This document shows, in pieces, positions 9,480-57,376 of a stretch of DNA of 64,000 nucleotides (position 1 is its first letter; every line of letters begins with the position of its first letter). A program made the translations under genes and the position numbers. The notes under the pieces are model-generated. The model ran no database searches and was not told the DNA's origin. It saw only the letters and a program-made list of their open reading frames with translations. The DNA is from a virus, in IMG/VR virus record IMGVR_UViG_3300050343_000215, positions 1-64,000 of that record, one strand, 5' to 3'.

Positions 9480-9564
9480 AGGAAGATGTGAGATTTGAAC
9501 TCACGGAGGTGTGATCCTCTCCAGTTTTCAAGACTGGTGCAATAAACCGCTCTGCCAACCTTCC
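9480..9564 (-). tRNA. trnS: tRNA-Ser (anticodon TGA)
   Basis: Acceptor GGAAGGT/ATCTTCC, anticodon arm CCAGT-CTTGAAA-ACTGG, long variable arm, T-loop GTTCAAATC; CCA is not encoded. Confidence 0.92.
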
Positions 9565-46953: not shown

Positions 46954-46967
46954 GAAACCTCCATAAT

Positions 46968-46991
46968 AAAAAAAGGAGGGTTACCCCCTCC
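46968..46991 (-). terminator. Rho-independent terminator
   Basis: GGAGGG-GGTAA-CCCTCC followed by a T tract. Confidence 0.75.
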
Positions 46992-47014
46992 CGATTATTT
47001 ATACTACTGTAATA

Positions 47015-47182
47015 TCACTTACTGTAGGTGCGTCCACGATAACAAAATGTACCATGGGTTTGCTTACTCTCTACACAACGTGTATCATACTCAACACCAC
47101 GATATGAGGTGTGAAGAACTTGTGCGTCGTGAAGTGCAGATACTTTATTGATCTGCTTCTTGATCATGTTTAGCGTGTTCAT
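47015..47182 (-). CDS. DUF4278-like small protein (55 aa)
   Basis: Two YRG motifs (YRGVEY, YRGRTY); CAGGAG RBS; lies downstream of the riboswitch-like motifs. Confidence 0.75.
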   Translation of the reverse strand: MNTLNMIKKQINKVSALHDAQVLHTSYRGVEYDTRCVESKQTHGTFCYRGRTYSK

Positions 47183-47217
47183 TTAATTTACTCCTGAAAG
47201 TTAGGGTTTTTAATTCC

Positions 47218-47401
47218 CCGTTCCTTCAGTCGTGTGCGTCCCATGGATAACATTCAGGGGTTGATTCCTTCATGACCTCAATCAATTCCACCTTATATTC
47301 GGGAGGAATATTCTCATTTGTTCTCATCCGAATCATAATTGAATCGGCTTGAGCACAGCTGAGAGTTGAATAGAATAGTAATTCTAACATGGGATGAACG
47401 G
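47218..47401 (-). ncRNA. Second glutamine-II (Downstream-peptide)-like riboswitch with an ORF in the P2 loop
   Basis: CGTTCA-TCCCATG...CATGGGA-CGCACACGACTGAA-GGAACGG. Confidence 0.6.
47226..47390 (-). CDS. Small protein (54 aa) embedded in the riboswitch
   Basis: MLELLFYSTLSCAQAD...TPECYPWDAHD*. Confidence 0.7.
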   Translation of the reverse strand: MLELLFYSTLSCAQADSIMIRMRTNENIPPEYKVELIEVMKESTPECYPWDAHD

Positions 47402-47403
47402 CT

Positions 47404-47448
47404 CCGTTCCGCGACTTACTTGCGTCCTCCTTACGGGGGATGAACGAT
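47404..47448 (-). ncRNA. Glutamine-II (Downstream-peptide)-like riboswitch
   Basis: ATCGTTCA-TCC(hairpin)GGA-CGCAAGTAAGTCGC-GGAACGG; 5' CGTTC is complementary to 3' GAACG. Confidence 0.75.
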
Positions 47449-47454
47449 GGTAAC

Positions 47455-47500
47455 AGTGTACATTACTATTTAGTATATGTCAACTGTATAATGCAATACA
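47455..47500 (-). promoter_or_regulatory. NtcA box with sigma70 promoter and nested late promoter
   Basis: TGTA-N8-TACA 47485-47500; TTGACA-N17-TACACT 47483-47455; CTAAATA 47467-47473. Confidence 0.75.
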
Positions 47501-47502
47501 CT

Positions 47503-47700
47503 TTAATATTTTCTTAAAGTTTTAAGATGTTCTACGATGTTATCACGTACCCACATAAGTTCATGATAGCATTGTTGGTTATGAGCACACTGACGCAGTG
47601 CAGGATCTGGTTTCAATACACTCTCAATAAACAAATCTAGACCACGATTCCACTTTACTTCTTGAGATTCACTGCCATCAATAACATACTGATCTTTCAT
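47503..47700 (-). CDS. Cyanophage hypothetical protein
   Basis: KWNRGLDLFIESVLKPD...LRQCAHNQ. Confidence 0.75.
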   Translation of the reverse strand: MKDQYVIDGSESQEVKWNRGLDLFIESVLKPDPALRQCAHNQQCYHELMWVRDNIVEHLKTLRKY

Positions 47701-57189: not shown

Positions 57190-57290
57190 AAAAAGTAAGA
57201 CCATCAGGGTAATGGTGGAGTTACTATTCCCTCTGCACCCTTAGCAGAGGTATTAGAGACGTTGTTTATACACCCTATAGGTCTCGGTTT
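57190..57290 (-). ncRNA. Structured psbA 5' leader (PhotoRC-II-like)
   Basis: Three stems GAGAC/GTCTC, CCTCTGC/GCAGAGG and ACCAT/ATGGT upstream of the ATG; the family name is from memory of that motif class. Confidence 0.5.
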
Positions 57291-57297
57291 GAGGGGT

Positions 57298-57376
57298 GTT
57301 ACGAACGGTTAAGAAATGTTTTGGTTTCTTAACCAACTGACTTATTTATAATAACAGGAAACCCTAGATCTGTCAA
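57298..57376 (-). promoter_or_regulatory. psbA promoter: sigma70 plus T4 late promoter, with a palindrome and HLR1-like repeats
   Basis: TTGACA-N17-TATTAT; TATAAATA 57343-57350; GGTTAAGAAA/TTTCTTAACC 57307-57334. Confidence 0.8.

Follow-up and report, generated by a model that had tools for sequence, protein, structure and literature searches.

A nested type-I glutamine riboswitch, built around a complete small gene and exerting ON control over an IF17-like gene, is probably encoded by the leader of a short transcription unit in a marine cyanophage genome. Riboswitch aptamers are usually regarded as compact non-coding domains and their use by phages is thought to be rare. The element described here is widespread among related phages, and the evidence concerns its conservation, the gene that it encloses, the pairing of its two cores and its probable effect on the downstream gene.

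A two-core cassette in a cyanomyovirus

The analysed sequence, hereafter the window, comprises 64,000 nucleotides (positions 1-64,000 of IMG/VR record IMGVR_UViG_3300050343_000215; the full phage record is 177,686 bp). It belongs to a T4-like cyanomyovirus: it has a PhotoRC-II RNA and thyX and transaldolase neighbours, and its blastn matches are nearly all Synechococcus / Prochlorococcus phages of the Kyanoviridae. An Rfam scan of the window at the gathering scores retrieved no glutamine riboswitch, the only matches being the PhotoRC-II RNA (57216-57311, minus strand, 79.5 bits) and a tRNA with a long variable arm (9480-9564, minus strand, 55.4 bits), both of which pass their gathering scores.

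All motifs of the two-core element are located on the minus strand, at 47448-47218 (Table 1). Core 1 (47446-47404) consists of CGUUCA (47446-47441), a short hairpin, ACGCAAGUAAGUCGC and GGAACGG (47410-47404). As the preliminary description of this sequence had it, a second CGUUCA follows almost immediately. The end of core 2 is followed by a short spacer, CUUUCAGGAG and the start of a 55-aa downstream gene. The protein encoded by this gene strongly matches phrog_545 alone (E 5.1e-35). As its PF14105 (DUF4278) score of 22.2 bits (E 1.9e-4, residues 26-54) lies below the Pfam gathering score of 25.3, the gene is called DUF4278-like here and is not assigned to the family.

Table 1. Features of the cassette in 5' to 3' order of the transcript; positions are those of the window
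Feature	Position	Strand	Remarks
NtcA-type box GTA-N8-TAC (perfect, putative)	47486-47499	-	directly upstream of the -35 hexamer; read from sequence
Sigma-70-type promoter TTGACA-17-TACACT	47455-47483	-	10/12 matches; predicted start a few bases before the first CGUUCA
CGUUC no. 1, P1 5' strand	47442-47446	-	invariant in all elements; P1 in the Rfam alignment
Core 1 short hairpin (P2 in type-I naming)	47425-47440	-	many different closing sequences in relatives
CGC linking strand and AAGUA (AGUA strand of the E-loop)	47417-47424	-	matches Rfam RF01739 consensus ACGgAAGUA
P3 5' strand AGUCG	47412-47416	-	covaries with 47228-47232
GGAACGG no. 1	47404-47410	-	invariant, hence without covariation
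CGUUCA no. 2	47395-47400	-	three bases after core 1; 5' part of core 2 spans 47400-47388
5' strand of the gene-enclosing stem, UCCCAUG	47388-47394	-	conserved part UCCCA 47394-47390; start codon 47390-47388
Nested gene phrog_504, 54 aa and stop	47226-47390	-	predicted helical hairpin, two invariant Cys
3' strand of the gene-enclosing stem, CAUGGGA	47239-47245	-	conserved part UGGGA; encodes Pro-Trp and the start of Asp
Core 2 CGC linking strand, ACA, P3 3' strand CGACU (47232-47228)	47228-47238	-	stop codon begins with the final U
GAA (E-loop strand and remainder of the UGA stop), then GGAACGG no. 2	47218-47227	-	matches Rfam consensus GAAGGAACG
Masking helix 3' strand CUUUCAG (47200-47194) into Shine-Dalgarno AGGAG (47195-47191)	47191-47200	-	pairs with CUGAAG 47229-47224
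Downstream gene, 55 aa, DUF4278/IF17-like, phrog_545	47015-47182	-	regulated gene of the unit
Intrinsic terminator, GC-rich hairpin then U run	46965-46992	-	3' of the 55-aa gene; also given as 46992-46974

The cassette appears to form a self-contained early transcription unit with a promoter, a leader RNA, two small genes and a terminator. Of 231 relatives, 158 have a TTGAC 36-39 nt 5' of the first CGUUC, 163 have one within 80 nt upstream, and 111 have a candidate NtcA box, GTA-N8-TAC, 53-61 nt 5' of the first CGUUC. A CTAAATA motif (T4-type late promoter) occurs within 80 nt upstream of the element in 81 of the same 231 relatives. In the window, the gene directly upstream of the cassette (47503-47700, minus strand) encodes a 65-aa phrog_495 protein. 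The neighbours vary among phages (speD, nrdB, talC, thyX) and the cassette therefore behaves as a mobile module.

The pattern ACGCA-N5-16-GGAACGG occurs exactly twice in the whole phage record, both times in the element, and its reversed-pattern control does not occur at all; the two-core arrangement is not due to chance. The cassette was retrieved by blastn from 372-425 phage records. In each of the 27 diverse phage genomes retrieved, the four motifs occur in the same order, and 173-210 nt separate the second CGUUC from the second GGAACG. Scanning IMG/VR with four patterns enlarged the set to 256 distinct elements with this layout; as the patterns demanded the conserved junction, the conservation of the junction among these relatives partly results from the way in which they were selected, the region 160-210 nt downstream being free of such selection.

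In 401 host-family genomes, the strict junction pattern did not find the element layout, with one phage-like exception. This sole match (L456, G383:C1:189447-192472) is a full gene-bearing element within AT-rich, phage-like sequence that includes a CTAAATA motif, and it may correspond to phage DNA within a host assembly. A Cyanobium match obtained with a looser contig pattern lies inside a coding region and was discarded as a chance match.

The gene enclosed by the second hairpin

The hairpin that follows the second CGUUCA had been proposed to contain a whole ORF. Judged from its sequence, this ORF of 54 codons is a real gene under purifying selection. Indeed, it belongs to phrog_504 (E 2.5e-29; deposited genomes label its product hypothetical protein T4-GC_430), 231 of the 232 distinct long forms have it intact and the median dN/dS of its main family is 0.24. 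The entropies of the first, second and third codon positions in this main family are 0.89, 0.46 and 1.24 in the interior of the gene and 0.19, 0.04 and 0.20 in its final six codons, where all three positions are frozen. This shows that the final four codons and the stop are dictated by the RNA core, which thus imposes the C-terminus (W)DA(N/H)D-stop. In the window, CGCACACGACUGAAGGAACGG (47238-47218), located directly after CAUGGGA, codes for W-D-A-H-D-stop, which confirms the earlier reading that CGCA...GGAACGG overlaps these codons.

The phrog_504 proteins are highly divergent (49-66 aa) and have in common a hydrophobic N-terminus and two invariant cysteines. The AlphaFold model of the protein is a helical hairpin (pLDDT 83). 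No PDB entry matched this model with an E value below 3.6, no Pfam family was found for the protein and a search of the ESM Atlas returned unnamed clusters only.

The stem that encloses the gene had been described as the pairing of UCCCAUG with a CAUGGGA about 140 nt further on. The latter does lie 143 nt downstream and is the sole CAUGGGA in 47101-47500, but only UCCCA:UGGGA is kept among relatives. These first five pairs are 97-99% paired across relatives (97% as compared with 26-66% for slid controls), and pairs 3 and 4 show double changes (C:G, U:A, U.G), so that the covariation proposed as a check on the long-range stem is found within the conserved 5 bp. According to RNAalifold, it is the sole conserved long-range helix, and it is present in the unconstrained minimum-energy fold. 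As the pairs involving the U and G of the AUG are only about 40% paired, the 7-bp stem is particular to this phage, and a conserved 7-bp stem including the whole AUG was rejected. Inside the ORF, no conserved RNA structure joining its ends was found (alifold -1.08 versus -0.09 +/- 0.33 for shuffled columns).

The content of the two hairpins varies among relatives. A short hairpin in core 1 combined with a gene in core 2 is the commonest form (177 elements), followed by a gene in both cores (39), a short hairpin in both (18) and a gene in core 1 with a short hairpin in core 2 (4). There are 24 ORF-less forms among the relatives. At the level of sequence, these short-hairpin variants in either core show that the hairpin loop is a tolerated insertion site. 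The ORF found in the core 1 hairpin of 43 relatives, including L012, L017 and L021 (S-CAM3, S-CAM1 and S-TIM5), encodes a phrog_6471 protein of 65-75 aa. One phrog_6471 subgroup reads through GGA-CGC-AAG-UAA, and its C-terminus GRK-stop is therefore the riboswitch core plus the E-loop strand. Homology between the two hairpin gene families (hhalign 93.9%, E 1.6e-7) points to the duplication of a gene-bearing unit, after which one of the two hairpins lost its gene.

The gene could be a passenger of the loop, a tolerated insertion site lending it a promoter, with riboswitch and gene uncoupled. The loop is indeed dispensable, as indicated by the ORF-less forms and the existence of all four ORF/short combinations, and both the divergence of the ORF payload and the lack of conserved RNA structure in the ORF interior would fit such independence. 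However, the precise placement of the gene makes this improbable. In 230 of 231 forms, the distance from the C of CGUUCA to its start is 9-12 nt, and in 223 of 231 its stop falls within the P3/E-loop strand, precisely four bases ahead of GGAACGG. Furthermore, the paralogous ORF of the other hairpin is placed alike, starting 10-11 nt after CGUUCA and stopping in the 3' strand of the stem or in AAGUAA. Lastly, a translating ribosome must unwind P3, the E-loop and P1, so that full independence is hard to picture.

Nested versus tandem pairing of the cores

The preliminary description presented the cores as tandem riboswitches. They do follow each other, but the covariation of P3 and the Rfam scores favour a nested fold over independent aptamers in series, and the element is likely to be better described as one type-I aptamer that includes a second core and a gene within its P3. 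The outer aptamer would be built from halves about 220 nt apart, joined by P3. Its 5' half would comprise CGUUC no. 1, the short hairpin and CGC-AAGUA, and its 3' half GAA-GGAACGG no. 2. Within P3 would lie GGAACGG no. 1, CGUUCA no. 2, the stem UCCCA:UGGGA and CGC, the loop of this inner stem being the complete gene.

The covariation of P3, AGUCG (47416-47412) with CGACU (47232-47228), involves five Watson-Crick combinations among the 256 elements: AGUCG:CGACU (207), AGUCA:UGACU (23), AAUCG:CGAUU (10), AUUCG:CGAAU (3) and AGUCU:AGACU (1). Wobble variants are found in 9 elements, and about 3 of the 256 are mismatched. This covariation holds in both ORF-bearing and ORF-less forms, and in a 55-sequence alignment P3 is 99.6% paired with two pairs changed on both sides. 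P3 is flanked by AAGUA (47421-47417) and by GAA(G) (47227-47224), the GAA strand of the E-loop being replaced by AAA in 97 of the 256 relatives. As in type I, a hairpin with a UCC..GGA base (47440-47425) directly follows CGUUCA. AAGUA, GAA and P3 constitute the type-I three-way junction and E-loop, and hence the first CGUUC must pair with the last GAACG. In this nested register, P1 pairs 47446-47442 with 47223-47219, both strands being invariant.

CGUUC no. 1 pairs with GAACG no. 2 if the fold is nested and with GAACG no. 1 if it is tandem. Likewise, GGAACGG no. 1 forms a local hairpin with CGUUC no. 2, just 5' of the ORF start, in the nested fold and closes core 1 in the tandem fold; the pairing by which the second CGUUC was said to compete for the GGAACGG of the first motif is thus possible. 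As all four P1 strands are invariant, covariation cannot decide between the two pairings, and the choice rests on P3, the E-loop strands and the Rfam scores. In ORF-less relatives that share the flanks of the window element, the Rfam type-I model aligns with the 5' half of core 1, a P3 insertion that extends as far as the end of the core 2 linker, and a closing segment, GAAGGAACGG, that belongs to core 2. These RF01739 nested alignments score 46.4 bits for L262, 45.0 for L093, 43.6 for L155, 40.2 for L284 and 40.3 for L181 (gathering score 35), and the type-I gathering score is reached by the nested alignment only, in ORF-less relatives. A permissive Rfam scan of the window element detected core 1 alone (Glutamine 25.4 bits, gathering score 35; Glutamine-II 19.3, gathering score 33), as an insertion of about 180 nt is too long for the model to accommodate.

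A true tandem would consist of two independent glutamine-II-like aptamers in series, whose cores are closed by GGAACGG no. 1 and no. 2, respectively; the gene would then occupy the first hairpin of core 2, the masking helix would be the P2 of this core and AGUCG:CGACU an inter-aptamer bridge. Both cores do possess CGUUCA, a hairpin, CGC, GGAACGG and the C19:G41 long-range pair, and thus the full set of nucleotides found in the solved glutamine-II binding site (PMC6698751). Core 1 of L284 passes the Glutamine-II gathering score (35.7 bits versus 33). Core 2 of ORF-less relatives obtains 24-27 bits, and that of the ORF-less L162 reaches 27-30 bits by itself. The paralogy of the two ORF families would fit the duplication of a whole unit. 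Furthermore, the masking helix (47229-47224 with 47200-47194) encloses GGAACGG, covaries and is placed where glutamine-II has P2, but with a 23-nt insertion. Such an arrangement is nevertheless unlikely, since P3 with AAGUA and GAA is exactly the type-I three-way junction, which requires CGUUC no. 1 to pair with GAACG no. 2, and since the type-I gathering score is confined to the nested register. In addition, core 1 alone is devoid of the GAA strand, core 2 alone is devoid of the AGUA strand, and the two bases shared by P3 and the masking helix prevent these helices from coexisting. The tandem fold may be an alternative conformer of the nested element; nearest-neighbour energies cannot rank the two because they include no terms for the pseudoknot, the E-loop or the ligand.

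The nested element shares with the type-I family (glnA RNA, RF01739; Synechocystis gifB/IF17 leader, PMC6212724) the P1 CGUUC:GAACG, the hairpin after CGUUCA and the CG(G/C)AAGUA and GAAG E-loop strands flanking P3. Like the gifB riboswitch, it is located in the 5' leader of a DUF4278/IF17-type gene and shows a competing pairing of the ribosome-binding site (RBS) that suggests ON logic. It differs by the insertion of about 180 nt in P3, comprising second core pieces and a whole gene, by its long-range pair, which is C-G, as in type II, and not G-C, by being phage-borne and by escaping standard family scans. A structure of the type-I glutamine riboswitch has reportedly been described by Ren et al. 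in 2015.

The resemblance to glutamine-II (Downstream-peptide motif, RF01704; marine Synechococcus and Prochlorococcus; PMC6698751) extends to CGUUCA, the hairpin, CGC (C17-G18-C19 of the solved core), GGAACGG, the C:G long-range pair, a helix enclosing GGAACGG and a short downstream DUF4278-type peptide, whereas the phage elements have 17-50 nt between GGAACGG and the 3' strand of the enclosing helix. The glutamine-II aptamer carries a free hairpin loop and tolerates splitting into two pieces (PMC6698751). Tandem riboswitches, such as the tandem glnA RNAs (PMC2864571) and glycine riboswitches, also have two ligand-binding cores per leader, but the phage cores are interlocked, one lying inside the P3 of the other, and share strands. 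Coding sequences looped out of a conserved RNA fold are found in group I/II introns, and in leader-peptide attenuators the position of the ribosome decides which RNA helices form. In contrast with these systems, the phage element is a metabolite sensor and not a ribozyme or a terminator/antiterminator system, and the start and stop codons of its gene belong to the sensor helices. We know of no glutamine-II member with an ORF in its first hairpin or with an interlocked partner core.

It is very improbable that the element does not sense glutamine at all and is either a decayed relic of host riboswitches or a protein-binding leader. The window element does fall under every Rfam gathering score, and a survey counted just two glutamine aptamers across cyanophage genomes (PMC5473149; cyanophage glutamine riboswitches are also mentioned in PMC9602691 and PMC9964418). 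However, conservation in the cassette is highest at the core bases, the overlap of the gene with the core has frozen synonymous sites, three helices covary and ORF-less relatives exceed the gathering score. Furthermore, host riboswitches of this kind control genes of the DUF4278 class (PMC6212724), and the downstream gene is of that type.

Switching, translation and biological meaning

The RBS of the downstream gene is masked by a helix that is 96.3% paired in the alignment, with a central pair that is AU in 20 sequences, GC in 19 and GU in 13, and that is present in the minimum-energy fold. When the nested gene ends with UAA, its CUAAAG is always accompanied by a CUUUAG partner (64 of 64). 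In L016, L031, L224, L235, L253 and L261, an extra conserved module made up of AACGGAUCC, a hairpin and GAGAAGGUUAA lies between GGAACGG no. 2 and the Shine-Dalgarno sequence; its hairpin covaries (AGC-GAAA-GCU, CUGC-UUAG-GCAG, CUC-UUCG-GAG, CACC-GAAA-GGUG).

P3 and the masking helix share two bases, the last ones of the P3 3' strand (alignment columns 281-282), and are therefore mutually exclusive. As the 3' strand of P3 overlaps the helix that masks the RBS, analysis of the expression platform indicates that the element is likely to be an ON switch. Both types of glutamine riboswitches are known to activate expression upon glutamine binding (PMC6212724; PMC6316151). Judged by nearest-neighbour energies, the masked fold is the most stable one (-80.9 kcal/mol versus -70.2 kcal/mol for the nested fold), which fits a default-off switch turned on by its ligand, like gifB and type II. 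The nested fold would then need energy from the ligand and from tertiary contacts, which lies beyond this computation.

From these sequence features, we infer glutamine binding, the direction of the switch and the translation of the nested gene. Glutamine would stabilise the closed aptamer (P1, E-loop and P3) and thereby pull CUGAAG out of the masking helix; the Shine-Dalgarno sequence thus freed would allow the IF17-like gene to be translated, in the manner of the gifB riboswitch of cyanobacteria. In this closed state, the start region of the nested gene would also be buried. The four P1 strands might pair in tandem, possibly early during transcription or as an alternative state.

The mutual exclusion of folding and translation suggested in the preliminary description agrees with the layout. 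Indeed, the start codon of the nested gene touches the 5' strand of the stem, and its final codons and stop are the 3' core of the aptamer, so that the two processes should exclude each other sterically. A ribosome finishing the nested gene at UGA would cover P3, the E-loop and GGAACGG and thus prevent the closure of the aptamer. Closure of the sensor and translation of the nested gene would therefore be mutually exclusive, and every passage of a ribosome would reset the sensor. The ribosome at UGA might also open the masking helix, with a possible translational coupling. The stop of the ribosome at the nested UGA could then make the IF17-like gene dependent on translation and not on glutamine, which would count against the explanation preferred here.

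Somewhat more speculatively, and with less confidence than in the nested ON switch itself, the gene-closed aptamer can be viewed as a combined sensor of glutamine and translation, whose four strands alternate between a tandem state with a masked RBS and a nested state with a free RBS. Each finishing ribosome would unfold this sensor and glutamine would be read again, which would lead to reciprocal or sequential control of the two proteins.

No published description of a nested or ORF-bearing glutamine riboswitch was found in a literature search that did not include Ames and Breaker 2011. If the combined sensor of glutamine and translation is real, its gene would be the first protein-coding sequence known to form an integral loop of a metabolite-sensing aptamer, and the use of riboswitches by phages would be far commoner than surveys report. 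A known class of sensors appears in several hundred cyanomyovirus genomes, in a guise that escapes family scans; more generally, this is a warning that covariance-model searches under-count riboswitches that contain large insertions. The frozen C-termini of a family of phage proteins find an explanation, DAND/DAHD being an RNA core read as codons. The element also offers a natural test bed for the interplay between translation and ligand sensing on a single RNA. Finally, it would link phage infection to the nitrogen status of the host through an IF17-like peptide, which may act on glutamine synthetase.
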